Positions 13,244-52,313 of a DNA stretch of 53,629 bases are shown here, piece after piece. The position numbers and the translations under genes were made by a program. The stretch comes from an uncultured Bacilli bacterium (GTDB taxonomy: Bacteria; Bacillota_I; Bacilli_A; RF39; UBA660), in NCBI GenBank assembly GCA_949439935.1, contig CASRZA010000002.1, positions 1 to 53,629 on the forward strand. Direction: 5' to 3'. A model generated the notes under the pieces. That model did not search any database. It was not told the origin of the DNA and saw only the letters and a program-made list of their open reading frames with translations. The number at the start of each line of letters is the position of its first letter. Position 1 is the first letter of the stretch.

Positions 13244-14434
13244 TCATTTCTTAATTTTAAGTATTATCTGATACATATCTTCGAAATCGTATTCCTCCAT
13301 CTCGACTTTGTATCCATTAGACTCGACAGACCTTACACTATCTCTAATCGTGTTGACTTGATCGCCGATACTTTTCTTAACGATTTCCCCTCCTGATATC
13401 TCTTGTGTCATGCTTGGACCGCCAAAAGGATTTATAGAAGGCTCCATCGAAGGAGCACTAGGAAGTGGACTTACGACGTCACCAAACATGTCGAAAGTCT
13501 CGATCGCTTCTTCTGTGTTTAACTTATTATCGCTTTCAAATACAGGTGGAACTCCCGGCATTGTTTCACCAAAATTCGTCGTCGTCGGCCCACTAAACGG
13601 ATTAAAGCTAGCAGGCGGAATCGTATCTTCTAAACCGATACTCAAATTTGGAGCGCTCGTCTCTAAATCCGTAGGTGGTTCTAAAGAGATGCCTAAGAAG
13701 TTTTTATTAGGCATTCCGTTCTGTCCCAAAACCGAATCTACGGACATATCTCCAACAGAATTTTCTTGTGTATTAGGTATCATTTCTCTTCCTCCGTGTT
13801 CTCCACTTGAATTGTCCTCTGCACCCGCTGTACTTCCCTGCAACAGTTTTTTAATCTCCATATCTAATTGTTTGACTGTCAATCTTTCCTTTATGATCCT
13901 GTTCAACATGTTCTTTTGATTGTCGGGATTAGAAAGCTGTAACAAACTTCGGGCATGTCTTTCACTAATCTGTTCATTCAAAAGAGCATTTTGAACTTCA
14001 TCACAGAGATTCAAAAGTCTCATTTTATTAGCTATAGTCGACTGAGAAACACCCAATTTTTGAGCCAACTCCTCTTGAGTCAAATATCCTCTATCTAAAA
14101 GATTCCTATAACTTTGAGCCTCTTCGATGCTCGACAGATTCTTCCTTTGTACATTTTCTATCAAGGCTACTTCTGCACTTTCGTTATCAGTCATTTCGCG
14201 TACGATCGCAGGAACCTTCTTTAAACCTGCCATACAGGAGGCTTTATAACGCCTTTCTCCTGCGATTATCTCGTACTTATTACCAACTTTTCTCAAAACT
14301 AGAGGCTGTATTACCCCGTGTACTTTGATAGAATCCGACAATTCTTGTAACGCTTTCTCATCGAAAGTAAGTCGAGGTTGAAATCTATTAGGTATTATAT
14401 CTTCGATAAATATTTCTTGAACTTGCTCATTCAT
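13244..14434 (-). CDS. noc: ParB/Noc-family protein, Noc-type, with a long low-complexity insertion
   Basis: ParB N-domain motifs IIPNRFQPR and IIAGERRYKA, plus ENVQRKNL. HTH region GVSQSTIANKMRLLNL...ISERHARSLL and C-terminus VNTIRDSV...EEYDFEDMYQIILKIKK resemble B. subtilis Noc as I recall it. The gene lies directly downstream of rsmG, which is the noc position. Confidence 0.75.
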   Translation of the reverse strand: MNEQVQEIFIEDIIPNRFQPRLTFDEKALQELSDSIKVHGVIQPLVLRKVGNKYEIIAGERRYKASCMAGLKKVPAIVREMTDNESAEVALIENVQRKNLSSIEEAQSYRNLLDRGYLTQEELAQKLGVSQSTIANKMRLLNLCDEVQNALLNEQISERHARSLLQLSNPDNQKNMLNRIIKERLTVKQLDMEIKKLLQGSTAGAEDNSSGEHGGREMIPNTQENSVGDMSVDSVLGQNGMPNKNFLGISLEPPTDLETSAPNLSIGLEDTIPPASFNPFSGPTTTNFGETMPGVPPVFESDNKLNTEEAIETFDMFGDVVSPLPSAPSMEPSINPFGGPSMTQEISGGEIVKKSIGDQVNTIRDSVRSVESNGYKVEMEEYDFEDMYQIILKIKK

Positions 14435-21664: not shown

Positions 21665-21755
21665 CTTTTGCACCTCCACATCTAAAAATTCATCTGTATT
21701 ATATTATAATGATATAACAAAAGTCAAGTTTATTACTTAAAAGTTATCAACAATT

Positions 21756-21897
21756 TTTTCCACACGATTTCCACACCGTGTGGATAAATTATCAACAATG
21801 TTGAAAAACCAAAATTGTGGAAACTGTGGATAAGTTTGTCGAACCCTGTCGAAATAGCATTTTAAAAGAATTATTTTTCCACAGTATCTGTAGATAA
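21756..21897. promoter_or_regulatory. oriC part 1: DnaA-box cluster upstream of dnaA
   Basis: TGTGGATAA (perfect) at 21779 and 21825. TTTTCCACA at 21756 and 21875, ATTTCCACA at 21767, TGTGGAAAC at 21816, TGTAGATAA at 21889. Confidence 0.85.
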
Positions 21898-21990
21898 CCA
21901 TGTTGAAAATTTCATTTTTGCAAAAAAGTTCTTTATCTTTTTTTTAATTTACGTTAAAATATTTTTATCAAATGCAGGGTGGTGATGGAT

Positions 21991-23422: not shown

Positions 23423-23504
23423 TGTGGAAACATATCCACAGATTATCCACAAGATAAAAGCCCGTTATATGTGGACAAAAGTACACTTATCCACAGTTTC
23501 CACA
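23423..23504. promoter_or_regulatory. oriC part 2: DnaA-box cluster between dnaA and dnaN
   Basis: TTATCCACA (perfect) at 23443 and 23487. TGTGGAAAC at 23423, ATATCCACA at 23432, TGTGGACAA at 23470. GTTTCCACA at 23496 directly abuts the box at 23487. Confidence 0.85.
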
Positions 23505-23509
23505 AACGA

Positions 23510-23536
23510 TAATAACAATAATAATTATAATAATAA
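23510..23536 (+). promoter_or_regulatory. Candidate DnaA-trio / DNA-unwinding element
   Basis: Nine consecutive trinucleotides, TAA TAA CAA TAA TAA TTA TAA TAA TAA. They begin 5 bp after the tandem DnaA boxes and end just before the dnaN RBS. Confidence 0.5.
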
Positions 23537-23552
23537 GAAAGAAGGAAAAAAA

Positions 23553-24671
23553 ATGAAATTTACGATAGAAAAAAATACACTCTTAGAAAGCCTAAATAAT
23601 GTTACGAAAGCGATATCAATTAAAAACGTTATACCAGTTTTAAATGGAATAAAATTTGAATTGAGTAATGAAGGTCTTTACCTGACCGCAAGCGACACAG
23701 ATCTTACTATAAAATCTTTTATAGAAAAAGATAAGATTAAAAGTGTAGAACGTACAGGTAGTATAGTTATCCAAAGTAAGTATATTAATGAAATAATAAG
23801 AAAACTGCCAGATGACACGGTAGACATCGAAGTAATTGAAGGATTAAAAGTTCTGATAAAAGCTAAGACGAGTCATTTCAGTTTGAACTGTTTAAAAGTA
23901 GAAGATTATCCACAGATAAAATTAGAATACCAAAAAGATCCTATTGTAATAAAAGGAAGTCTATTTAAAACTATTATTAAACAAACCGTCTTTGCCATCA
24001 GTTCTCAAGAGTCTAGGCCTCTTCTTACAGGAATAAACTTTAAACTTCAAGGTAATATAATGGAAATTACTGCGACAGATTCATACAGACTAGCAAAAAA
24101 GACTATTACTTTACAAGAATTTATAAAAGATGAAATAAACATCACGATACCTGGAAACAATATAAGTGAACTAGACAAGATCATAAACGATGACGAACCA
24201 GTTGAAATGCACATCTTCTCTAATAAAATATTATTTATATACAAGAATATCACTTTCCAATCTAATTTATTGAGTGGTACATATCCAAATACTAATAACT
24301 TAATACCAGATAACTTCTCTACTATATTCAATACCAACTATGATGAGTTCTATAGTGCGATAGATAGAGCGTCACTTTTAACTCAAAGCAAAGAAAAAAA
24401 TATAGTTAAAATGGAAACGAAAGATAATGTATTAGTGATTTCATCTTTCGCCTCAGAAATAGGTCGTACGGAAGAAACGATTGCGATTGAAAAAAATGAA
24501 GGAGACAACGTAGGAATTTCGTTCAGTGCTAAATATATGATGGATGCACTTAAAACGATCGACGATACAGAACTAGTCGTATTTCTAAATAGTGAAATAA
24601 AGCCGATAGTGATTAAATCTGCTAAAGATGAGACTTTGGTACAATTAATTTTACCGATAAAAACATATTGA
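23553..24671 (+). CDS. dnaN: DNA polymerase III beta sliding clamp
   Basis: MKFTIEKNTLLESLNNV... is a typical DnaN N-terminus, and the ATG at 23553 follows GAAGGA. The track start at 23424 would translate through the DnaA boxes. Confidence 0.95.
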   Translation: MKFTIEKNTLLESLNNVTKAISIKNVIPVLNGIKFELSNEGLYLTASDTDLTIKSFIEKDKIKSVERTGSIVIQSKYINEIIRKLPDDTVDIEVIEGLKVLIKAKTSHFSLNCLKVEDYPQIKLEYQKDPIVIKGSLFKTIIKQTVFAISSQESRPLLTGINFKLQGNIMEITATDSYRLAKKTITLQEFIKDEINITIPGNNISELDKIINDDEPVEMHIFSNKILFIYKNITFQSNLLSGTYPNTNNLIPDNFSTIFNTNYDEFYSAIDRASLLTQSKEKNIVKMETKDNVLVISSFASEIGRTEETIAIEKNEGDNVGISFSAKYMMDALKTIDDTELVVFLNSEIKPIVIKSAKDETLVQLILPIKTY

Positions 24672-24698: not shown

Positions 24699-24812
24699 AT
24701 TAGAATCTCCAAAAAATGGAAAAAAATACCAGTTTTTTCCAATCGCCGACAAATTTTGACAAATTTCGACAGAGAATTATGGTATAAGAATGCGCACAGG
24801 GAGGTGAAGAAG

Positions 24813-25310
24813 ATGGATTATATGGATAGTTATAAGATAAACACAGATACTTTGGCAATAGTACCTATAAACAGAAAGAAATCTAAAGTCTATGAAAACC
24901 AAAATATAATAATAGTAAAAAAGAATGCTAACAAGATCATCGAAGAAAATTGTGAATATTTTGGAAGCTCATATGCAGGACGAAAAAAAGGAACCATGGA
25001 TCTTATAGGCGTTACACATAAGGCACCGATTCTAATAGAAGATTCTCAAAATATAATATTTTTTCCTACGAGCAGTCCGAGATTAAACGATTGCAACTGG
25101 ATATCGCTTAATAATGTAGATAGCTTTTTGCCACATGATGACGACAGTATTATCACGTTTCAAAATAACCTATCGATCCAAGTGAACGTATCTAATAAAG
25201 TTATCAACAATCAGATTTTGAGAGCTACTAGATTAGAATCTGTCGCATCGAAGAGAAAAGATAAGTTTTATAAGGAAATAAATCGACAAAAAAACACAAA
25301 AAACATTTAA
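24813..25310 (+). CDS. comK: ComK-family competence transcription factor
   Basis: YFGSSYAGRKKGT, HKAPILI and IIFFPTSSP...CNWIS match ComK hallmark motifs. ATG at 24813 follows GGGAGGTG. Confidence 0.8.
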   Translation: MDYMDSYKINTDTLAIVPINRKKSKVYENQNIIIVKKNANKIIEENCEYFGSSYAGRKKGTMDLIGVTHKAPILIEDSQNIIFFPTSSPRLNDCNWISLNNVDSFLPHDDDSIITFQNNLSIQVNVSNKVINNQILRATRLESVASKRKDKFYKEINRQKNTKNI

Positions 25311-28426: not shown

Positions 28427-30991
28427 ATGATGGAAGAAGAAAATAAAGAACAAGAATTAGAACTTACATCAAATGAAACGACAGAGACCGATAAAGTTCA
28501 ACATAACGATATAGTAGACGAAATTGAAGGTTCCTTTGTAGAATACGCACTAAGTGTAATAACTGCAAGAGCTCTTCCAGATCTAAGAGATGGGTTAAAA
28601 CCTGTTCATAGACGAATTCTTTACTCTATGTATGAATCGGGCTATACTCCAGATAAACCTCACAAGAAATGTGCTCGTATAGTCGGAGACGTCATCGGTA
28701 AATACCACCCACATGGAGATTCTTCGATATACGACGCTATGGTTCGTATGGCACAAGATTTTAGTCTTAGATATATGCTTGTCGACGGCCATGGTAACTT
28801 CGGTAATATAAATGGAGATGGTGCAGCAGCATATCGTTACACAGAGTCTAGAATGGCTAAAATATCACTAGAAATGATACGTGATATAAATAAAAATACT
28901 GTCGATTTCGAACCAAACTTTGACGGTTTAGAAAAAGAACCAGTAGTACTACCATCAAGATTTCCGAATGTTTTAGTAAACGGAACGACGGGAATAGCCG
29001 TTGGTATGGCAACTAATATACCACCGCATAACTTAAGAGAAGTAATCGACGGTTGTATAGCCTACATAGACAATCCTGAAATAGATACATTAGGATTGAT
29101 GCAATATATAAAAGGACCTGATTTCCCTACTGGAGCTATCATACTAGGAAACAGTGGAATCAGAAAAGCTTATGAAACAGGTCGCGGATCTATAACGATC
29201 AGAAGTAATGCAATTATAGAAGAGAAAAATGGAAAAAACTACATAATAATCGATGAAGTTCCATACGGATTAAACACATTATCTCTTAAAGAAAAGGTAG
29301 CAAGCCTAGTTCATAACAAAGTGATCGATGGGATATCAGATTATCATACGGATCTAAAAAATGGTCTTAAAATAACGATTACGCTTAAAAGGGACGCGAA
29401 TCCACAAGTAGTATTAAACAACCTATATAAGCATACAGAATTCCAAACTACTTATGGTATATTGTTTATAATGCTCGATATGGGCGTACCAAAAACGCTT
29501 GGGTTAAAAGATATAATCAGCAAATACATCAATCATCAGAAAGAAGTTATCATAAGAAGAACAAAATTTGAACTCGATAAAGCAGAAAAACGAGTACACA
29601 TCTTAGAAGGTTATAAAATAGCACTCGATAATATCGATGAAGTTATAAAAATAATCAAAGAAGCCGAAAGCGATGTCATTGCTAAGGAAAAACTGATCAA
29701 GAGATTTGGCTTCTCAGAAATACAAGCTGATAGCATACTTGAATTAAAACTAAGACGTTTAACTGGCTTAGAAAGAAGCAAGATTGAAGAGGAACTAGCG
29801 AACTTACTACAGACTATTGAAGAATTAAAGAGCATCTTAGCTAGCGAACAAAAAGTTTTGGACATAATTAAAAAGGAATTAACTGAAATTAAAGAAAAAT
29901 ATGGCGATGAACGTCGTACTAAAATCGATATGACTGCAGTCGACTTTATAGAGGATGAATCACTTATCCCTGAAGAAAATAGTATTATTACCTTAACTGA
30001 CAAGGGATACATTAAACGTGTCGCAGCAAGCACTTATAAAATACAGAATCGCGGTGGTGTTGGCATAAAAGGAATGTCAACTAACGAAGAAGATAATGTT
30101 AAACTAATGGTAAACGTTTCTACACATGATTACATTCTATTCTTTACGAATAAAGGTAAAGTATATCGTATAAAAGGTTACGAAATACCTGAATTTGCTA
30201 GACAACACAAAGGTCTACCGATCATAAACCTTTTACAAATAGAAAAAGATGAACTAGTAAATTCAATAATCAAAGTTTCCAACGAAGATGAAGCAAAATA
30301 CCTACTATTTGCTACAAAAAAAGGAATTGTAAAGCGTACAAGCATTGACGAATTTGCTAATATTCGTCAAAATGGTAAGTTATGTATAACATTAAAGGAA
30401 AATGACGAACTTATAGAAGTTAAAAAGACAACAGGTGAAAATAAAATAATGTTAGGATCTTCAAATGGACGTGCAGTTCTATTTGACGAATCCGAAGTGA
30501 GAATAATGGGAAGAACAGCATCCGGAGTACGTGGTATATCGATGCCAGACGGTGAATGTATATGCGCAGAGGTATGTGATCTAAACACAAACATACTCAT
30601 TGTTACCGAAAAAGGTTACGGAAAGCGAACATTTGTTCGAGAATTTAGAGAAACAAGACGTGGTAGCAAGGGAGTTAAAGCTCTAAATATAACAGAAAAG
30701 AACGGTAATATTGTATCCTTCAAAATAGTTGACGATAACAAAGACATAGTAATTATTACTGATTCTGGAATGGTAATTAGATTAGAAACTGTTAAAATAT
30801 CTCAGTTAAGCCGCAATGCCCAAGGAGTTAGATTGATAAATCTTAAAGATAATCAGTCTGTTTCGTCGATTAGTATTGTAGAAAAAGATCAGACAGAAAA
30901 TAGCGAGATATCTGTTGAAGATTCTGAGCAATCCTCCAACGACCAACCTGCAGAAAATTTAAGTGATCAGACAGAAAAAGATGAAACGTAA
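28427..30991 (+). CDS. gyrA: DNA gyrase subunit A
   Basis: [16 protein letters not shown] region [10 protein letters not shown], catalytic Tyr region AAYRYTESR, and C-terminal beta-pinwheel repeats plus an acidic tail. Confidence 0.97.
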
Positions 30992-31019: not shown

Positions 31020-31033
31020 CGAACATTTGTTCA
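31020..31033. promoter_or_regulatory. LexA (Cheo/SOS) box-like palindrome
   Basis: CGAACATTTGTTCA contains the GAAC-N4-GTTC core of the Firmicute LexA operator. It lies 7 bp downstream of a TATAAT (31008-31013). Confidence 0.35.
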
Positions 31034-31056
31034 CTTTGTATCGATAACTTGACTAA

Positions 31057-31072
31057 TGTTCCACGTGAAACA
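31057..31072. promoter_or_regulatory. parS site 0
   Basis: TGTTCCACGTGAAACA, identical to the B. subtilis parS consensus. Confidence 0.85.
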
Positions 31073-31090
31073 TTATACGTTGCCACAAAA

Positions 31091-31106
31091 TATTTCCCGG
31101 GAAATA
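31091..31106. promoter_or_regulatory. Noc-binding site (NBS) 0
   Basis: TATTTCCCGGGAAATA inside a 24-bp perfect palindrome (31087-31110). Its centre is 34 bp from the parS 0 centre. Confidence 0.8.
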
Positions 31107-31230
31107 TTTTTAACGCGAATTCACTATTAGCTTTTTTCAGATCATGAATCTCTCTAAAAATGAGTATCAAATGTGAGTAATACACTATTCATTCTTATAT
31201 AAGGAGTATATAATTGCCAACTTATCCACA

Positions 31231-31246
31231 TGTTCCACGTGGAACA
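31231..31246. promoter_or_regulatory. parS site 1
   Basis: TGTTCCACGTGGAACA (perfect palindrome), immediately preceded by DnaA box TTATCCACA (31222-31230). Confidence 0.85.
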
Positions 31247-31264
31247 TTGTAATATACCACAAAA

Positions 31265-31280
31265 TATTTCCCGGGAAATA
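31265..31280. promoter_or_regulatory. NBS 1
   Basis: TATTTCCCGGGAAATA, centre 34 bp from the parS 1 centre. Confidence 0.8.
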
Positions 31281-31417
31281 ATATTAACGCAATTTGCCAT
31301 CGGTTTATTCATTATTAACCCTTTCAGACTGTGAATCACTCCAAAAATGGGTAGCATATGTAGCTAATCGACTGTTAATTTTTATATAAGACGTGTATAA
31401 TTACTAACCTATCCACA

Positions 31418-31433
31418 TGTTCCACGTGGAACA
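31418..31433. promoter_or_regulatory. parS site 2
   Basis: TGTTCCACGTGGAACA, preceded by CTATCCACA (31409-31417). Confidence 0.85.
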
Positions 31434-31451
31434 TTGCAAGATGTCGCAAAA

Positions 31452-31467
31452 TATTTCCCGGGAAATA
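31452..31467. promoter_or_regulatory. NBS 2
   Basis: TATTTCCCGGGAAATA, centre 34 bp from the parS 2 centre. Confidence 0.8.
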
Positions 31468-31558
31468 ATATTAACGCAATTTGCCATCGGTTTATTTCAT
31501 TATTAACCCTTTCAGACTGTGAATCACTCCAAAATATGTGACATAAGTGGATAATTTA

Positions 31559-31587
31559 TTGTTAATTCTTATAAAAGTGTGTATAAT
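31559..31587 (+). promoter_or_regulatory. Sigma-A-like promoter inside a repeat unit
   Basis: TTGTTA (31559-31564), 17-bp spacer, TATAAT (31582-31587). It is oriented to transcribe into the DnaA box, parS 3 and NBS 3. Confidence 0.5.
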
Positions 31588-31603
31588 TACCAACTTGTCC
31601 ACA

Positions 31604-31619
31604 TGTTCCACGTGGAACA
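31604..31619. promoter_or_regulatory. parS site 3
   Basis: TGTTCCACGTGGAACA, preceded by TTGTCCACA (31595-31603). Confidence 0.85.
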
Positions 31620-31637
31620 TTGTAATCTGTCACAAAA

Positions 31638-31653
31638 TATTTCCCGGGAAATA
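31638..31653. promoter_or_regulatory. NBS 3
   Basis: TATTTCCCGGGAAATA, centre 34 bp from the parS 3 centre. Confidence 0.8.
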
Positions 31654-31744
31654 ATATTAACGCGATTTGCTATCGGTTTATTTTATTATTAACCCTTTCA
31701 GACTGTGAATCACTCCAAAATATGTGACATAGGTGGATAATATA

Positions 31745-31773
31745 TTGTTAATTCTTATAAAAGTGTGTATAAT
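31745..31773 (+). promoter_or_regulatory. Sigma-A-like promoter inside a repeat unit
   Basis: TTGTTA (31745-31750), 17-bp spacer, TATAAT (31768-31773). Degenerate versions occur in the units ending at 31230, 31417 and 31892. Confidence 0.5.
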
Positions 31774-31789
31774 TACCAACTTATCCACA

Positions 31790-31805
31790 TGTTCCACGTG
31801 GAACA
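31790..31805. promoter_or_regulatory. parS site 4 (unit lacking an NBS)
   Basis: TGTTCCACGTGGAACA, preceded by a perfect TTATCCACA (31781-31789). The NBS-containing segment is deleted in this unit. Confidence 0.85.
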
Positions 31806-31892
31806 TTGTAATCTGTCACAAAATATGTAGCATAAGTGGATAATATACTATTAATTCTTATAAAAGTGTGTATAACTACTAACTTATTCACA

Positions 31893-31908
31893 TGTTTCAC
31901 GTGGAACA
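31893..31908. promoter_or_regulatory. parS site 5
   Basis: TGTTTCACGTGGAACA, the reverse complement of the B. subtilis consensus. Preceded by TTATTCACA (31884-31892). Confidence 0.85.
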
Positions 31909-31926
31909 TTGCAAGATGTCGCAAAA

Positions 31927-31942
31927 TATTTCCCGGGAAATA
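31927..31942. promoter_or_regulatory. NBS 5
   Basis: TATTTCCCGGGAAATA, centre 34 bp from the parS 5 centre. Confidence 0.8.
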
Positions 31943-32079
31943 ATTTTAACGCGATTTACCATCGGTTTATTTCATTATTAAGCCTATAAGATTACAAAAA
32001 ACTTAAAAAAATATTAAACTAAGTTTATATTGCTGTGTTTTTTACATATAGAATGTCCTCAATTTATAACTTACTCATA

Positions 32080-32095
32080 TGTTCCACGTGGAACA
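32080..32095. promoter_or_regulatory. parS site 6
   Basis: TGTTCCACGTGGAACA in otherwise diverged flanks. Confidence 0.85.
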
Positions 32096-32113
32096 TTGTA
32101 TGATGCCATAAAA

Positions 32114-32129
32114 TATTTCCCGGGAAATA
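32114..32129. promoter_or_regulatory. NBS 6
   Basis: TATTTCCCGGGAAATA at the centre of a 30-bp perfect palindrome (32107-32136). Its centre is 34 bp from the parS 6 centre. Confidence 0.8.
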
Positions 32130-32178
32130 TTTTATGCATGGCTTAAATTACTGATTAGCATCTTCTTAACCTTTTTGA

Positions 32179-32194
32179 TGTTCCACGTGGAACA
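32179..32194. promoter_or_regulatory. parS site 7
   Basis: TGTTCCACGTGGAACA; the palindrome extends to 20 bp (32177-32196). It lies about 50 bp upstream of the ffs promoter. Confidence 0.85.
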
Positions 32195-32246
32195 TCAATT
32201 CAAAAAATAAAATTTTGCCAAACGAAAAAACTGTGGAAAACTTTAG

Positions 32247-32275
32247 TTGATTATAAACTCGATCTGTGATATCCT
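32247..32275 (+). promoter_or_regulatory. Promoter of the SRP RNA gene
   Basis: TTGATT (32247-32252), 17-bp spacer ending in TGa, then TATCCT (32270-32275). The predicted start near 32282 coincides with the first base of the SRP RNA closing helix. Confidence 0.45.
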
Positions 32276-32281
32276 TATGAT

Positions 32282-32357
32282 GCACAGCGAACGATTGTCG
32301 AACCTGGTCAGAATTGGAAAATAGCAGCCATAAGACATAGTCCGTGTGTGCTTTTTT
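32282..32357 (+). ncRNA. ffs: Small (4.5S-type) signal recognition particle RNA
   Basis: CCUGGUCAGAAUUGGAAAAUAGCAGCCAUAAG aligns with E. coli 4.5S domain IV, CCAGGUCAGGUCCGGAAGGAAGCAGCCAAGG (GGAA tetraloop, conserved AGCAGCC). 5' GCACA pairs with 3' UGUGC, followed by a U8 run. The locus (ffs-tadA-dnaX) fits Firmicute synteny. Confidence 0.6.
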
Positions 32358-32369
32358 TTGGAGGAAGAA

Positions 32370-32798
32370 ATGGATAAAGAAAAAAAACTGTGGAAAAGAC
32401 TCTTTGAGCTGGCAAACAAGTCCTTAAAGAACGATGAATTTCCTGTAAGTGCTATCATCTATGATGAAGAAGGTATAATTAGTTGTGGATATAATAAAAG
32501 AAATGCTAGCAAAAAAACTACTGATCATGCAGAAATTATTGCAATAGAAAAGGCTAACAAGAAACTGCATAGTTGGAATTTAGCGAACAAATGTATGCTT
32601 GTAACATTAGAACCATGCGAAATGTGTAAGGCAGTAATAAAAGAGGCCAGATTAAAAAATATATACTATTTAATACCTCGCTACGAATACAAAAAAACAT
32701 ACAAATGTACGCTTTTTGAACATCTTGACTTAGAAAGCGAAGAGAAAGAAAAATATCTAAATAACATTCAGACGTTTTTTAAAAATAAAAGAAGATAA
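32370..32798 (+). CDS. tadA: tRNA-specific adenosine deaminase
   Basis: Zinc motifs HAEIIAIE and PCEMCKAVI. ATG at 32370 follows GGAGG; the track start at 32346 lies inside ffs. Confidence 0.85.
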   Translation: MDKEKKLWKRLFELANKSLKNDEFPVSAIIYDEEGIISCGYNKRNASKKTTDHAEIIAIEKANKKLHSWNLANKCMLVTLEPCEMCKAVIKEARLKNIYYLIPRYEYKKTYKCTLFEHLDLESEEKEKYLNNIQTFFKNKRR

Positions 32799-36368: not shown

Positions 36369-37133
36369 ATGTATTTAATAGGAGTTAAATTTAAAATCGA
36401 TGGAAAAACATACAATTTTTCGTCAGACAAACTATATAATAAAAATACTAAAGTCATTGTAGAAACTGAAAAAGGGATACAATTAGGAATAGTTGATAAG
36501 ACAGAATGTGACAAAGATTGTAATAATCTGAAGGCAATCGTCAGAGAAGCTTCTCCGGAGGACTATGACAAATATCTTAAAAATATTAAGGACGCAAACA
36601 AAGCGTTAAAAGAAACTAAAGAGTTGATAAAGAAACTTAATTTAAACATGAAATTGATCGATGCAAACTTTTCGCTAGACAAAAAAATGTTACTTTTTAA
36701 TTTCATTTCTGACGAACGCGTCGATTTTAGAGAGTTAGTAAAAGAACTAGCAGCCAAATACCATACCAGAATCGAACTTCATCAAATAGGAGTAAGAGAT
36801 AAAGCCAAAGAAATAGGGGGAATCGGTCTATGCGGTCGTATATTGTGCTGCAACAACTGTTTAAAAACCGTAAATTCAATAAATATAAATATGGTCAAAA
36901 ATCAAAACATATCCCTAAATCCTACAAAAATAAATGGTGCATGCGGTCGCCTATTATGTTGTTTCACCTATGAAAATGAACTTTATGAAGAAAACAGAAA
37001 AGCCCTACCTAAAATTGGAGAGAAAGTGAAATATAAAGGCTCGATAGCTGAAGTAAAAGAAATCGATGTATTAAACAAAAAATACACCGTAAAAACAAGT
37101 GAAAATGCTTTTGAAGAGGTATCGTTAGATTGA
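36369..37133 (+). CDS. ricT: PSP1-domain protein RicT/YaaT
   Basis: PSP1 C-terminal domain (TRIELHQIGVRDKAKEIGGIGLCGRILCC, ACGRLLCC). Follows holB. Confidence 0.8.
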   Translation: MYLIGVKFKIDGKTYNFSSDKLYNKNTKVIVETEKGIQLGIVDKTECDKDCNNLKAIVREASPEDYDKYLKNIKDANKALKETKELIKKLNLNMKLIDANFSLDKKMLLFNFISDERVDFRELVKELAAKYHTRIELHQIGVRDKAKEIGGIGLCGRILCCNNCLKTVNSININMVKNQNISLNPTKINGACGRLLCCFTYENELYEENRKALPKIGEKVKYKGSIAEVKEIDVLNKKYTVKTSENAFEEVSLD

Positions 37134-37828
37134 TGGAATTGAACGACTTATATGATTATGGTCTCAAAATATACCAAAATGCCGACTATTTTAAATTTAG
37201 TTTAGATTCCATATTGTTAGGAGAATTCGTAGAACTTAAAGCTAATCAAAAAATTTTAGATTTGTGTACTGGAAATGCTCCTATACCATTGATTCTCTCC
37301 ACAAAAAGAGAGGATATCCAAATAGACGGATTAGAAATTCAAAAAGAGATTTTTACTCTAGCACAAGAGAGCATTAAAATAAACAACTTAGATTCTAGAA
37401 TAAGGCTTCATAACGTAGATGCAAAAACTTTTTCTGCAAGATGGAAATATGATATTGTATTAGCAAATCCACCATATTTCAAAGTCTCTTCATCGTCGCA
37501 AAAGAACGAAAATCTAGTTAAACAGATCGCCAGACATGAAGTAACTTTAAATTTAGCGGATGTCATAATGGCAGCCAAGCGAAATCTCAAAGAAAACGGA
37601 ACCTTCTATATGGTACACCGTGTAGATCGACTATTAGATTCGATCCATGAACTAGAAAAAGCCAAATTTGGTTTAAGAAAAATAGTATTTATACATACTA
37701 AAAATGATGAAGCAGAAATTTTTCTAATCCAAGCATCGAAATACAAAAAAAGTGACATGAAAGTTAGATCGATATTTACTAAAGACAGGCTGACTTATAA
37801 GAATATTTTTAAGGAGGAGTTGAAATGA
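37130..37828 (+). CDS. SAM-dependent methyltransferase, YabB/TrmN6-like tRNA (adenine-N6) type
   Basis: LDLCTGNAPIP SAM loop and NPPYF catalytic motif. Confidence 0.65.
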   Translation: MMELNDLYDYGLKIYQNADYFKFSLDSILLGEFVELKANQKILDLCTGNAPIPLILSTKREDIQIDGLEIQKEIFTLAQESIKINNLDSRIRLHNVDAKTFSARWKYDIVLANPPYFKVSSSSQKNENLVKQIARHEVTLNLADVIMAAKRNLKENGTFYMVHRVDRLLDSIHELEKAKFGLRKIVFIHTKNDEAEIFLIQASKYKKSDMKVRSIFTKDRLTYKNIFKEELK

Positions 37829-41636: not shown

Positions 41637-42161
41637 TTGGTGATAATTTTGACACAAAATAGTAACATACGAAGAATAGATGAATTAGGTAGAATAGTCA
41701 TACCGAAAGATATAAGAAAAAAATTACATATCAAAGACAACGAACCTCTCGAGATTTACATCGATAATGGCGACATAAGAATCAGAAAATATTCTTCACT
41801 TCCTGATATAATCGAGTATATAAGAAACCTTATAGATATAGGTAATAGAATAGCTGGTTATTCATATATTATTACAGACAGAGAGAAAATAATCGCTTCG
41901 ACAAACAAAGAATTTGAAACTATACCATTAGAAAAACCGTTAGAAGATTTGGTTCTCTCTTGCCATGAAGACAGAAACATAGCGATAGACTACAGAATAG
42001 CAAACATACCAGTAAAAGGATATGCAAATATTGTTCCAATAATAGTCGATAATGACCGTTCAGGACTCATAATAGAATACAACACATCTGGAGAAATACG
42101 AAATCAAGAAGTTATAAAAATTTTTAAAAACTTGATAGAAACTAGTCTGAACAATTATTGA
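41637..42161 (+). CDS. spoVT: Stage V sporulation protein T (AbrB-type N-domain + GAF-like domain)
   Basis: IRRIDELGRIVIPKDIRKKLHIKDNEPLEIY is the SpoVT/AbrB swapped-hairpin motif. The position after mfd is conserved. Start codon uncertain (TTG 41637, GTG 41640 or TTG 41649). Confidence 0.8.
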   Translation: MVIILTQNSNIRRIDELGRIVIPKDIRKKLHIKDNEPLEIYIDNGDIRIRKYSSLPDIIEYIRNLIDIGNRIAGYSYIITDREKIIASTNKEFETIPLEKPLEDLVLSCHEDRNIAIDYRIANIPVKGYANIVPIIVDNDRSGLIIEYNTSGEIRNQEVIKIFKNLIETSLNNY

Positions 42162-42192: not shown

Positions 42193-42395
42193 ATATTGAG
42201 CAGTGAAGAAAAGAGTATGCAATAGGATTTTATAGAGAGTCGACGGTTGGTGTAAGTCGATAATGAAATTTGCTGAACATGGTTTTGGAGCTCAAACGTC
42301 TAACTCGCGTTAAAAAGTTAAAAGTGCATGATAACATGAATTAAGGTGGTACCGCGGGTTAAAAACTCGTCCTTTAAATTCATGTTTTTTTATTT
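42193..42395 (+). promoter_or_regulatory. T-box riboswitch leader (methionine specifier)
   Basis: AGAGAG box (42234), candidate AUG specifier in GAACAUGG (about 42275), T-box sequence AAGGTGGTACCGCGGG (42343-42358), and terminator arms ACATGAATT / AAATTCATGT followed by T7. Confidence 0.75.
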
Positions 42396-42411
42396 AGAAA
42401 GAAGGATTTTT

Positions 42412-43938
42412 ATGGAAAAACATTTTTATATTACAACCCCGATTTATTATCCATCGGCGAATTTTCATATAGGGCATTGTTACAGCACGATAATCGCAGA
42501 TTCTATTGCAAGATACAAAAGACTAGATGGTTATGATACGTATTTTTTAACTGGCAGTGACGAACATGGTCAAAAAATCGAAAAAAAGTCAGCCGAAGCT
42601 GGAGTAGAACCAAAAGAGTATGTAGACAAGATCGTCGAAAATGCGAAAGATTTATGGAAGCGTCTAGGAATTACATATGATCGTTTCATCAGAACTACAG
42701 ACGAAGACCACGTAGAAACAGTCCAAAAAATATTTACAAAACTCTATGATAAAGGAGATATTTATAAAGGTGAATACAAAGGGCTCTATTGCACGCCATG
42801 TGAAGCGTTTTGGACCGAATCTCAACTCGTAGACGGTAAATGCCCTGACTGTGGTCGAGATGTGCAAGAAGTAAGTGAAGAAGCATACTTTTTAAAACTC
42901 TCGAAATATCAAAAACAGCTTGAGGAATACATCGAAAGTCACCCAGAATTCATTCAACCTGAAACTAGAAAAAATGAGATGATTAACAACTTCATAAAAC
43001 CAGGTTTAGAAGATTTATGTGTTTCACGTACCAGTTTTAAATGGGGAATCCCGGTGACATTCGATACTGACCACGTAGTATATGTTTGGCTCGATGCCTT
43101 GAGTAACTACATAACAGCACTTGGCTATGGTCAAGAAAACGACGAATTATTCAAAAAATTTTGGCCTGCTGATGTACACATAATCGGAAAAGAGATAGTC
43201 AGATTTCACACCATAATTTGGCCTATAATTTTAATGGCGTTAGATCTACCTTTGCCTAAGAAAGTGTTTGGTCATGGTTGGTTAATAATCGATGGAGCTA
43301 AGATATCCAAAAGTGTCGGCAATTACAAAGATCCACGCGAATATATAGATGCTTATGGAGTAGACGCAGTCAGATACTTTTCTTTAAGAGAAATTCCTTT
43401 TGGAAACGATGGAAACTTCTCAGAGGAAGCTCTCATTGCACGTATAAACAGCGATCTTGCAAACGTGTGGGGAAATCTCGTCAATAGAACTATCGGAATG
43501 GCTAACAAGTACTTCGAAGGAACAGTGACAAATCCTAAATCTGCAGAGAATATAGACATACCATTCATAGAACAAATCGACGATTTAAAAATACAAACTG
43601 ACAACAAAATCGACGAATTACAAATTTCTAAAGTTCTAGAAATGATATTCGATGTCCTGCGCAATAGTAACAAATACATCGATGATACCGCTCCTTGGGT
43701 TCTAGCTAAAGACGAAAGTAAAAAGGATAGACTAGAAACTGTTCTATACAATTTATTAGAAGCTATAAGAGTGACGAACATCTTGCTTAAACCGTTCATG
43801 CCAGAAAGTACTACTAAAGTAGAAGAATATCTTAACTGTGATAAGACAGCGTTTGAAGATGCTAAGTATAATGAAAACCTAACTTACAAAGTCACAGATT
43901 CTCCTAAGCCGCTTTTTGAGAGGATCCAAAAAGACTAA
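42412..43938 (+). CDS. metG: Methionine--tRNA ligase (short form)
   Basis: HIGH motif (ANFHIGH), zinc knuckles CTPCEAF...CPDCG, KMSKS motif (KISKS). ATG at 42412; the track start at 42346 lies inside the T-box leader. Confidence 0.95.
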   Translation: MEKHFYITTPIYYPSANFHIGHCYSTIIADSIARYKRLDGYDTYFLTGSDEHGQKIEKKSAEAGVEPKEYVDKIVENAKDLWKRLGITYDRFIRTTDEDHVETVQKIFTKLYDKGDIYKGEYKGLYCTPCEAFWTESQLVDGKCPDCGRDVQEVSEEAYFLKLSKYQKQLEEYIESHPEFIQPETRKNEMINNFIKPGLEDLCVSRTSFKWGIPVTFDTDHVVYVWLDALSNYITALGYGQENDELFKKFWPADVHIIGKEIVRFHTIIWPIILMALDLPLPKKVFGHGWLIIDGAKISKSVGNYKDPREYIDAYGVDAVRYFSLREIPFGNDGNFSEEALIARINSDLANVWGNLVNRTIGMANKYFEGTVTNPKSAENIDIPFIEQIDDLKIQTDNKIDELQISKVLEMIFDVLRNSNKYIDDTAPWVLAKDESKKDRLETVLYNLLEAIRVTNILLKPFMPESTTKVEEYLNCDKTAFEDAKYNENLTYKVTDSPKPLFERIQKD

Positions 43939-51533: not shown

Positions 51534-52313
51534 ATGGAAATAAAAAAAGGCGACCTCGTTACGAGGAAAAGCTACGATCATGATACGGTCTTCAAAGTTT
51601 TAAACATTCAAAATGGAATTTATTATTTAAAAGGTGTCGATGTTCGATTATATGCTGACAGCCCACTTACTGATCTCGAAAAAGTTATAGTAGAAACCGA
51701 TAAAGAAGACTACACAGAAAGAGTTCGCGATTGTCTACTTTTAGATAGAGACGAATTTTTTTATCTCCCAGGTAAAATTTTACACTTCGACGGAGATTCA
51801 GACTATTTAAACCGTTGCCTCGAGTTCTATGACAAGACTGGTGTCAAAGCAGTAGGAAAAAACGTTAAAGAGAGTGACTTGCCAAACTGTATAAATAAAT
51901 ATCTGATAGAATACAAACCAGATATTGTAATTATTACAGGGCACGATGCCTACTACAAAAAAAAAGGCGATGAGCACGATTCAAAGAATTACCAGAACTC
52001 ACTAAACTTCATAAAAAGTGTCATGGCCGCGAGAAACTACGAATCTAGTCATGAAAAACTAATCATAATTGCAGGTGCTTGCCAAAGCAACTATGAAGAA
52101 ATCATTAAGGCAGGGGCAAACTACGCATCCAGTCCCAAGCGAGTGAATATACACGCTTTAGATCCTGCAATAATCGCAGTTGCAGTCGCACTTACCAAAA
52201 GAAATGAGGAAATCAATTTGATCGAATTATTAGAAAGAACTAAATATGGTCGCGAAGGAATGGGGGGAATAATGGGAAACGGCGTCATGTATGTCGGATA
52301 CCCTAGACAATGA
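51534..52313 (+). CDS. yabG: Sporulation-specific protease YabG (peptidase U57)
   Basis: LPGKILHFDGD, IVIITGHDAY, IIAGACQS and SSPKRVNIHALDP match B. subtilis YabG as recalled. Confidence 0.85.
   Translation: MEIKKGDLVTRKSYDHDTVFKVLNIQNGIYYLKGVDVRLYADSPLTDLEKVIVETDKEDYTERVRDCLLLDRDEFFYLPGKILHFDGDSDYLNRCLEFYDKTGVKAVGKNVKESDLPNCINKYLIEYKPDIVIITGHDAYYKKKGDEHDSKNYQNSLNFIKSVMAARNYESSHEKLIIIAGACQSNYEEIIKAGANYASSPKRVNIHALDPAIIAVAVALTKRNEEINLIELLERTKYGREGMGGIMGNGVMYVGYPRQ

Follow-up and report, generated by a model that had tools for sequence, protein, structure and literature searches.

Origin-proximal parS arrays of uncultured Bacilli recurrently carry a DnaA-type box beside parS

The intergenic spacer between gyrA and the signal recognition particle (SRP) RNA gene of an uncultured Bacilli bacterium (RF39, UBA660) holds a tandem array of ParB sites (parS), Noc-binding sites (NBS) and DnaA boxes. 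The array is located in contig CASRZA010000002.1 of assembly GCA_949439935.1, positions 1–53,629 of which were analysed and are referred to below as the window. In several lineages that share this array, a DnaA-type box stands beside parS at a distance of 0–1 nt (0–6 nt in the family of the window), and the placement is recurrent, one-sided and orientation-specific. By its sequence the array is at once a DnaA-box cluster and a parS centromere, and the pairing suggests a hard-wired link between the start of replication and the organisation of the new origin. A tentative reading, which we hold to be possible if somewhat short of probable, is that the gyrA-SRP RNA spacer would be an origin-proximal hub. 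It would bring together a box cluster resembling the DnaA-box clusters (DBCs) of Bacillus subtilis or datA of Escherichia coli, a parS centromere array and Noc sites, with a DnaA reservoir coupled to ParB.

The evidence for the pairing comes from two sets of genomes whose selection was blind to DnaA boxes. The first comprises 44 species genomes retrieved with the pattern parS-N(12–30)-NBS and the second comprises genomes picked by TadA similarity alone, together providing 221 parS in 60 genomes besides the window. Syntenic parS are kept in the 60 genomes, and in 43 of the 44 species genomes of the first set the array occupies the same gyrA-[array]-SRP RNA-tadA-dnaX spacer. The accepted DnaA-box consensus, TTATNCACA, was used except where another sequence is named, and boxes were counted at ≤1 mismatch unless termed perfect. 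Perfect boxes reading 5′→3′ into parS occur nine times at spacing 0 and seven times at spacing 1, i.e. 16 versus ~0.2 expected, the background at every other offset up to 44, as well as for boxes pointing away from parS, amounting to ~0.1 perfect boxes per offset. Similarly, a forward box with up to one mismatch is found at spacing 0–1 in 17 genomes, as compared with 0–2 genomes at control offsets. The parS of this clade is itself an extended palindrome, often CAA/parS/TTG, and position −1 is A in 94% of its flanks. When this extension is taken into account in a position-specific null, calculated by hand from the flank frequencies, the expected number of perfect boxes is 0.034 for spacing 0 and 0.14 for spacing 1. 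The surrounding DNA of the spacer, outside the box-parS motif, is unconserved, and the arrays display a box density two to eight times that of their flanks.

Two neighbouring arrangements are not claimed as associations. Boxes in the reverse orientation abut parS in L081, L095, L098 and L116 (L numbers designate the loci of relatives), where three perfect ones compare with ~0.2 expected and the per-genome count at ≤1 mismatch falls inside the range of the control offsets. In L081 (4763–4788) the inverted perfect box and its parS (CTGTGGATAA/TGTTTCACGTGAAACA) appear to be embedded in coding-like sequence with a stop ~35 nt further on, which may be the 3′ end of gyrA. Abutment of box and NBS is rejected as an association of its own, being confined to boxes sandwiched between parS and NBS, as in L043, L016, L039, L004 and L065. 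The exact fused 25-mer of box and GG-type parS, the form covered by a scan of 185,579 species genomes, is present at seven loci, six of them in this clade and one in Psychroserpens (Bacteroidota). The latter (L045, 3062–3086) lies just downstream of a 623-aa open reading frame (ORF) whose C-terminus appears MnmG/GidA-like by eye, a second parS being found upstream of the same ORF, and is probably a chance occurrence.

In the window itself, the array contains 17 boxes, six of them perfect, in 1.28 kb, which corresponds to 13.3 per kb versus 1.6 per kb elsewhere (the coordinates of all features are collected in Table 1). Matches to TTATCCACA with up to one mismatch number 51 in the window versus 14.8 ± 3.9 in shuffled sequence, and perfect TTATNCACA boxes number 13 versus 2.3 ± 1.6, with 6/13 in the array and 5/13 in oriC. 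A preliminary description of this DNA had held that box density in the array matches or exceeds that of the origin, and it does: 15 boxes per 700 bp are found in the array, 10 and 6 in the rpmH-dnaA and dnaA-dnaN clusters that flank dnaA, and 1.3 on average over the window, no other cluster of the window being as dense as the array. The eight boxes listed there are all present at their positions and on their strands, and the five on the plus strand each end on the base that directly precedes a parS, although the count was too low, since it omitted the boxes entered in Table 1 as TTATACACA, TGATTCACA, TTACTCACA, TTATACACG and TTTTCCACA. Both the clustering of boxes and the origin-proximal position that characterise non-oriC DnaA-box clusters of the B. 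subtilis type are thus found here. As in the Caulobacter-type system with DnaA at the centromere, boxes lie within the parS region and abut 5/8 parS, those at 31057, 32080 and 32179 being devoid of an abutting box in this strain. The sites have the form of chromosomal parS, a 16-bp palindrome TGTTNCACGTGNAACA in an origin-proximal position, five of the eight being perfect TGTTCCACGTGGAACA and three being one-base variants. All six NBS cores start 35 nt after the start of their parS, leaving a 19-nt linker from the parS end.

The array is built from a 186-bp unit present 3.4 times (31191–31826, 90% matches) and a 103-bp sub-unit present 2.1 times (31716–31929) that overlaps the former repeat. 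Since the boxes were copied within the 186-bp unit they are not independent events; the independent observation is three to four boxes per unit, and the high box count in the window is the result of recent tandem amplification of one unit. In other strains of the species 15 nt are inserted after 31119, 5 nt are missing at 31219, and one parS unit has been lost through a deletion of 99 nt (32078→32178). Because strains differ and short-read assemblies break inside the array, the copy number of the unit is polymorphic or uncertain. Two further arrays are also tandem. A complete 1.31-Mb Bacilli metagenome-assembled genome (L106, 5492–6485) has 13 tandem NBS with an 83-bp period downstream of tadA, without parS, and L110 (5489–6115) has seven parS/NBS pairs with an 82-bp period and AGTGGAAAA before every parS. 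Tandem amplification of ParB/Noc sites thus recurs in the group.

When lineages are clustered by a GyrA fragment, the window's cluster has the pairing in 4/4 members, namely the window, L002, L036 and L065, and at least six other clusters, at ≤75% identity, have it as well (the L026 group, L043, L066, L046, L039/L016). L004 also has the pairing and fell outside the clustering, its locus having no gyrA. In L004 (1–270) the array is preceded by what appears by eye to be the 3′ end of an IS200/IS605-type tnpA in place of gyrA, which points to a rearrangement at the locus. The form of the pairing differs within the family, the window having TTATCCACA at 0 nt, L002 TTTTCCACA at 0 and 2 nt, and L036 and L065 TTTTCCACA at 5–6 nt. 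Relatives that conserve parS and NBS without the box positions had been named in advance as the case that would speak against a functional pairing; no such case is found in the window's family, and about half of the distant lineages are of this kind.

Several observations weigh against the hub. Approximately 15 clusters, about half of the lineages, have the same parS/NBS array with no adjacent box, thus making the pairing dispensable, and the one locus (L120) returned by a metagenome scan for close relatives of the cassette has the same synteny without boxes. The spacing varies (0, 1, 2, 5 or 6 nt) and the box, located on the gyrA (oriC-proximal) side in most lineages, is found on the dnaX side in L004 and L046, so that a single rigid mechanism does not account for the pairing. 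In the class most often found elsewhere, TTATTAACA plus 1 nt, the conserved C6 is absent and the final bases also belong to the extended parS (CAA/TGTT); the enrichment of this class, again calculated by hand, is ~8-fold rather than ~100-fold. Among the four full cassette copies of the window the divergence is 8.3% in the abutting box, 10.1% in the spacer, 1.6% in parS and 0% in NBS; parS and NBS are clearly constrained, and the abutting box varies as fast as the spacer. Finally, no gene for a ParB of the parS-reading type (R173/G201) is present within the window.

This last comparison of cassette copies is what a mostly neutral origin of the window's boxes would predict, i.e. that the boxes which an ancestral unit carried by chance, or had once required, were copied by recent tandem amplification and are now decaying with no present role. 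The 186-bp unit is indeed recent and many lineages manage without boxes. We nevertheless regard neutrality as unlikely, because in the 4/4 family members most parS have retained a DnaA-type box upstream, even though the spacers cannot be aligned and the offsets differ, and because recurrence in the other lineages is far above that at control offsets. The window's own deviant boxes point the same way, as other strains have the consensus TTATCCACA at two of the three abutting boxes that deviate (31597 G>A; 31888 T>C). In addition, the parS at 32080, box-less in the window, is preceded by TTATCCAC in one other strain.

The strict one-sidedness of the box and its fixed orientation are compatible with a roadblock. 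ParB clamps slide and tightly bound proteins stop them, and a DnaA molecule beside parS would halt ParB-CTP sliding clamps on one side without any regulation of initiation. ParB spreading and SMC loading would thereby acquire a direction, either away from oriC or towards it, and clamps would be kept out of gyrBA and oriC. The predominance of the gyrA side, which includes the window's family, agrees with such a function and the 0–6 nt range of spacings would be tolerable for it. A roadblock is opposed by the dnaX-side boxes of L004 and L046, and the extra inverted boxes further upstream would be superfluous. We consider this reading distinctly unlikely.

The identification of the 9-mer as a site for DnaA relies on its diagnostic bases and on a comparison with oriC. 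The oriC of the window uses TTATCCACA, TTTTCCACA and TTATCAACA, of which the first two also stand beside parS in the window's family and TTATCAACA does so in the L026 group only. Only one locus of the L026 group, L010, extends as far as oriC; its dnaA-dnaN spacer contains TTATAAACA, TTATCAACA and TTATTAACA, set in an AAG/GAG-TTAT context, and these variants with their context are exactly the A6 forms found one base from parS in the L026 group. Thus, in the two lineages in which covariation was examined, the box variant on the parS side matches the oriC variant of the same lineage. DnaA domain IV would be expected to bind the parS-adjacent boxes, judging from these sequences. Some features could be ascribed to an extension of the ParB site, such as a third half-site, or to the site of another protein: the box TTATNCACA and the parS half-site TGTTNCACG are alike at 6/9 positions, the clade's parS is the extended palindrome described above and AAG is conserved before the 9-mer. 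However, the motif lies on one side in 50/50 paired parS and on both sides in none (0/50). Its diagnostic positions 2, 3 and 9 are T, A or T, and A, never the G, T and G of the parS half-site, so that position 2 has the T of DnaA boxes rather than the ParB-specific G. Position 5, which is N in the consensus, varies between C, T, G and A with the other positions kept, and the same variants and AAG/GAG context recur in the oriC of the same lineage. We consider a protein other than DnaA very unlikely, and a symmetric extended ParB site is rejected on the grounds of the missing second side and the DnaA-type bases.

The preliminary description had also spoken of a cassette promoter (TTGTTA-17-TATAAT) with the inverted boxes upstream of it. 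On this basis each cassette might be a σA promoter whose −10 and +1 regions are covered by DnaA boxes, and DnaA would repress transcription through parS/NBS towards SRP RNA-tadA-dnaX. The 10/12 matches at 31559–31587 and 31745–31773, the overlap of boxes with the −10 and the predicted start, a metatranscriptome contig spanning 31516–31751 and the known role of DnaA as a transcription factor at box-bearing promoters (PMC3245932) would suit this proposal. The promoter did not hold up: promoter-like sites are unenriched (12 versus 10 ± 2.9 in shuffles), and the proposed one has no TGn, is followed by no terminator and is not conserved in relatives, the paired sites of L004, L026 and L065 being without a comparable promoter. 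What had been taken for the −10, TGTGTATAA(T), is the inverted perfect DnaA box (31578, 31764, 31867); at 31578 this TTATACACA box overlaps the proposed −10 TGTGTATAAT. The RNA contig has a low depth, equal to that of gyrA and tadA, and may derive from DNA carry-over, and the cassettes belong to no Rfam family. Control of a promoter by DnaA is accordingly very improbable.

How the hub might operate depends on the spacing. At 0–2 nt the box and the outer parS half-site have their centres ~9–11 bp apart. The footprints of DnaA domain IV and ParB should therefore overlap, and the two proteins would bind competitively or interdependently. Either they would compete for the outer half-site or each would gate the other there, and at 5–6 nt co-occupancy is plausible. 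Lying ~10 kb from oriC, the array would be duplicated only seconds after initiation and would serve as a DnaA reservoir. The capacity of the reservoir would depend on ParB occupancy and the loading of ParB clamps on free DnaA. The net effect would be a damping of re-initiation, coupled in cis to the activity of the centromere and of SMC loading, and would replace the trans-acting Soj and YabA controls that are missing from their usual loci. Even close relatives depart from the exact 0-nt fusion (0, 2, 5 and 6 nt); this speaks against one fixed geometry of contact between DnaA and ParB. Variable spacing and side, together with the half of the lineages that are unpaired, suggest an accessory and evolvable coupling rather than an obligatory machine. 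A stronger version, a cis-encoded interlock in which a parS-fused box with DnaA would gate the loading of ParB-CTP clamps, ParB would gate the release of DnaA and the module would replace the trans-acting regulators, seems to us unlikely. As regards the direct interplay of DnaA and ParB originally suggested, box enrichment and recurrent juxtaposition stand, and the linkage of box and parS is real and recurrent. The proposal is partly supported, as sequence does not separate titration, competition, co-occupancy and roadblock, nor decide the purpose and direction of the linkage.

The proteins that would act on the array are partly encoded in the window. Its sole ParB-family gene is of the Noc type, the protein matching Noc with 198 bits and Spo0J with 172 bits in a comparison with the PDB. 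At the four ParB/Noc specificity positions defined by Jalal et al. (PMC7383237) it has Q173, K179, N184 and R201, the Noc type, and would thus be predicted to read NBS and not parS. The protein starts ~25 residues later than B. subtilis Noc, and so has no N-terminal membrane-targeting helix, and ends in a low-complexity C-terminal tail of ~195 aa. Its N-terminal 200 aa are 83–94% identical in 15 relatives and the tail is variable. Close relatives have one ParB-family gene at this locus and the distant L061 and L018 have two. Provided that the perfectly conserved parS are used, a parS-specific ParB must be encoded outside the window. The earlier remark that Soj and YabA are missing from their usual loci is confirmed within the window, in which neither soj nor spo0J adjoins the Noc-type gene and YabA is absent from its usual slot. 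This slot is closed, because the PSP1/YaaT gene (36369–37133) overlaps the next methyltransferase gene (37130–37828).

The array resembles the B. subtilis DBCs and E. coli datA in being a cluster of consensus boxes outside oriC and near the origin, and the known examples bind DnaA and restrain initiation. In contrast to both, the putative DnaA sites are here interleaved with or abutting parS/NBS in a tandem unit and are not accompanied by YabA or Soj at the usual loci. The mechanism of datA, in which IHF and the stimulation of DnaA-ATP hydrolysis take part, is specific to γ-proteobacteria, and such IHF-dependent hydrolysis is not implied here. The B. subtilis DBCs bind DnaA and repress initiation, and they show a genetic interaction with spo0J (Okumura et al. 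2012, PMC3245932); the combined loss of DBCs and Spo0J/ParB is synthetically severe (PMC3245932). In Caulobacter crescentus the parS region contains boxes to which DnaA binds (Mera et al. 2014, cited in the review PMC6399470), and here too initiator boxes lie inside the centromere region with DnaA and ParB sites on the same short origin-near DNA. Caulobacter belongs to another phylum, however, and its mechanism involves ParA-driven translocation of the centromere, whereas here the usual locus has no ParA (Soj). In the present clade, moreover, the box has a 0–1 nt register and a fixed orientation to individual parS and the module includes Noc sites. On chromosome II of Vibrio cholerae the centromere site rctA/parS2 binds the initiator RctB, and ParB occupancy modulates the availability of the initiator in cis (PMC3688505; PMC6399470). 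This arrangement similarly places a centromere site beside initiator binding, although the initiator is RctB and not DnaA, whose binding is predicted here, the replicon originates from a plasmid, and the two systems have no sequence logic in common. With the origin-proximal parS and Noc-NBS sites of other Firmicutes (PMC7383237) the array shares canonical 16-bp parS and NBS palindromes near the origin. It differs by having 8 parS and 6 NBS in 1.2 kb, in fixed parS-19 nt-NBS units with boxes, unlike B. subtilis, where single sites are scattered over hundreds of kb.

Table 1 Coordinates of the array, its sites and the comparator features in the window.
Feature	Position	Strand	Remark
Array (gyrA-SRP RNA intergenic spacer)	31020..32270		8 parS, 6 NBS, 17 DnaA boxes
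gyrA	28427–30991		left border of array spacer
SRP RNA gene	32276–32360		Rfam match; right border of 1.28-kb array spacer
Tandem cassettes	31191..31929	+	186-bp unit and 103-bp sub-unit
parS 16-mer TGTTCCACGTGGAACA	31231..31246
Further parS	31057–31072 (..GTGAAACA), 31418–31433, 31604–31619, 31790–31805, 31893–31908 (TGTTTCAC..), 32080–32095, 32179–32194
NBS core ATTTCCCGGGAAAT	31266..31279
Further NBS cores	31092–31105, 31453–31466, 31639–31652, 31928–31941, 32115–32128
DnaA box TTATCCACA (perfect)	31222..31230	+	abuts parS at 31231
DnaA box CTATCCACA (1 mismatch)	31409..31417	+	abuts parS at 31418
DnaA box TTGTCCACA (1 mismatch)	31595..31603	+	abuts parS at 31604
DnaA box TTATCCACA (perfect)	31781..31789	+	abuts parS at 31790
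DnaA box TTATTCACA (perfect to TTATNCACA)	31884..31892	+	abuts parS at 31893
Inverted box TTATCCACT (1 mismatch)	31546..31554	−	copies 31732–31740 (TTATCCACC), 31835–31843 (TTATCCACT)
Inverted box TTATACACA (perfect to TTATNCACA)	31578..31586	−	copies 31764–31772, 31867–31875
Degenerate copy TTATACACG of inverted TTATACACA box (1 mismatch)	31392–31400	−
Weak inverted box TGATTCACA (1 mismatch to TTATNCACA)	31518..31526	−	copies 31330–31338, 31704–31712
Inverted box TTACTCACA (1 mismatch)	31172–31180	−
TTTTCCACA box in direct repeat AAAAAACTGTGGAAAA	32232..32240	−	second copy 32389–32397; pair flanks SRP RNA gene
dnaA	21979..23412	+	canonical AAA+ and C-terminal box-binding domains (Bac_DnaA, Bac_DnaA_C)
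oriC box cluster upstream of dnaA (comparator)	21744..21897		variants TTATCCACA, TTTTCCACA, TTATCAACA, TTATCTACA
oriC box cluster (comparator)	23432..23914		dnaA-dnaN spacer (23432–23495) into dnaN start (23767, 23906)
Sole ParB-family gene, Noc-type	13244..14434	−

The origin of the window is the rpmH-dnaA spacer, where genes change strand and the cumulative GC-skew has its minimum at ~22 kb (21.5–22 kb), and the array lies ~9.3–10.3 kb to the right of it. A second or displaced oriC at the array is rejected, as the skew minimum and the switch of gene orientation are located at 21.5–22 kb and not at 31–32 kb. Beyond the SRP RNA gene the order is tadA, dnaX, ebfC and recR. A 16-nt exact direct repeat, AAAAAACTGTGGAAAA (32225–32240 and 32382–32397), which includes the inverted TTTTCCACA box, brackets the SRP RNA gene, and motifs like it, CTGTGGAAAAC, occur in the 3′ coding end of gyrA of L002, L036 and L065. 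Within oriC a DnaA box is followed twice by ATGTTGAAAA (21789–21808 and 21897–21910), and the box-parS composite of the L026 group begins with the very 14-mer, TTATCAACAATGTT, that is found at 21789. In the box cluster upstream of dnaA a TGTCGAA motif, the Spo0A-box consensus, is present twice side by side (21836–21860). Genes for SpoVT-like (41637–42161) and YabG (51534–52313) proteins suggest a sporulating lineage. A small S4-like gene, yaaA/rlbA, usually lies between dnaN and recF in Bacilli, and in the window a ComK-family ORF (24756–25310, plus strand; Pfam PF06338, E 2.7e-41) is located between these two genes. Rfam matches in the window are the SRP RNA and a T-box leader (RF00230, 114 bits; 42194–42377) upstream of the methionyl-tRNA synthetase gene (42346–43938); a small RNA or known RNA family in the cassettes is thus rejected. 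The window sequence is found in mouse-gut metagenomes and its relatives are uncultured bins labelled Bacilli, Tenericutes or Erysipelotrichaceae.

The coupling of initiation and segregation is known mainly through trans-acting proteins: in B. subtilis Soj/ParA acts on DnaA, and in Caulobacter it is DnaA that acts at the centromere. Boxes that stand in register against parS, beside Noc sites, in a clade whose one window examined has neither Soj nor YabA at the usual locus, would represent a compact and purely cis-acting version of this coupling, the composite being short enough to fit a 60-bp oligonucleotide. Were the interlock to be true, initiation, SMC loading and Noc-mediated control of division would be tied to one 1.2-kb hub. 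The arrays of the many uncultured gut Bacilli compared here indicate that parS, NBS and DnaA boxes are able to evolve together, as a single module, at the conserved gyrA-SRP RNA-tadA-dnaX locus.

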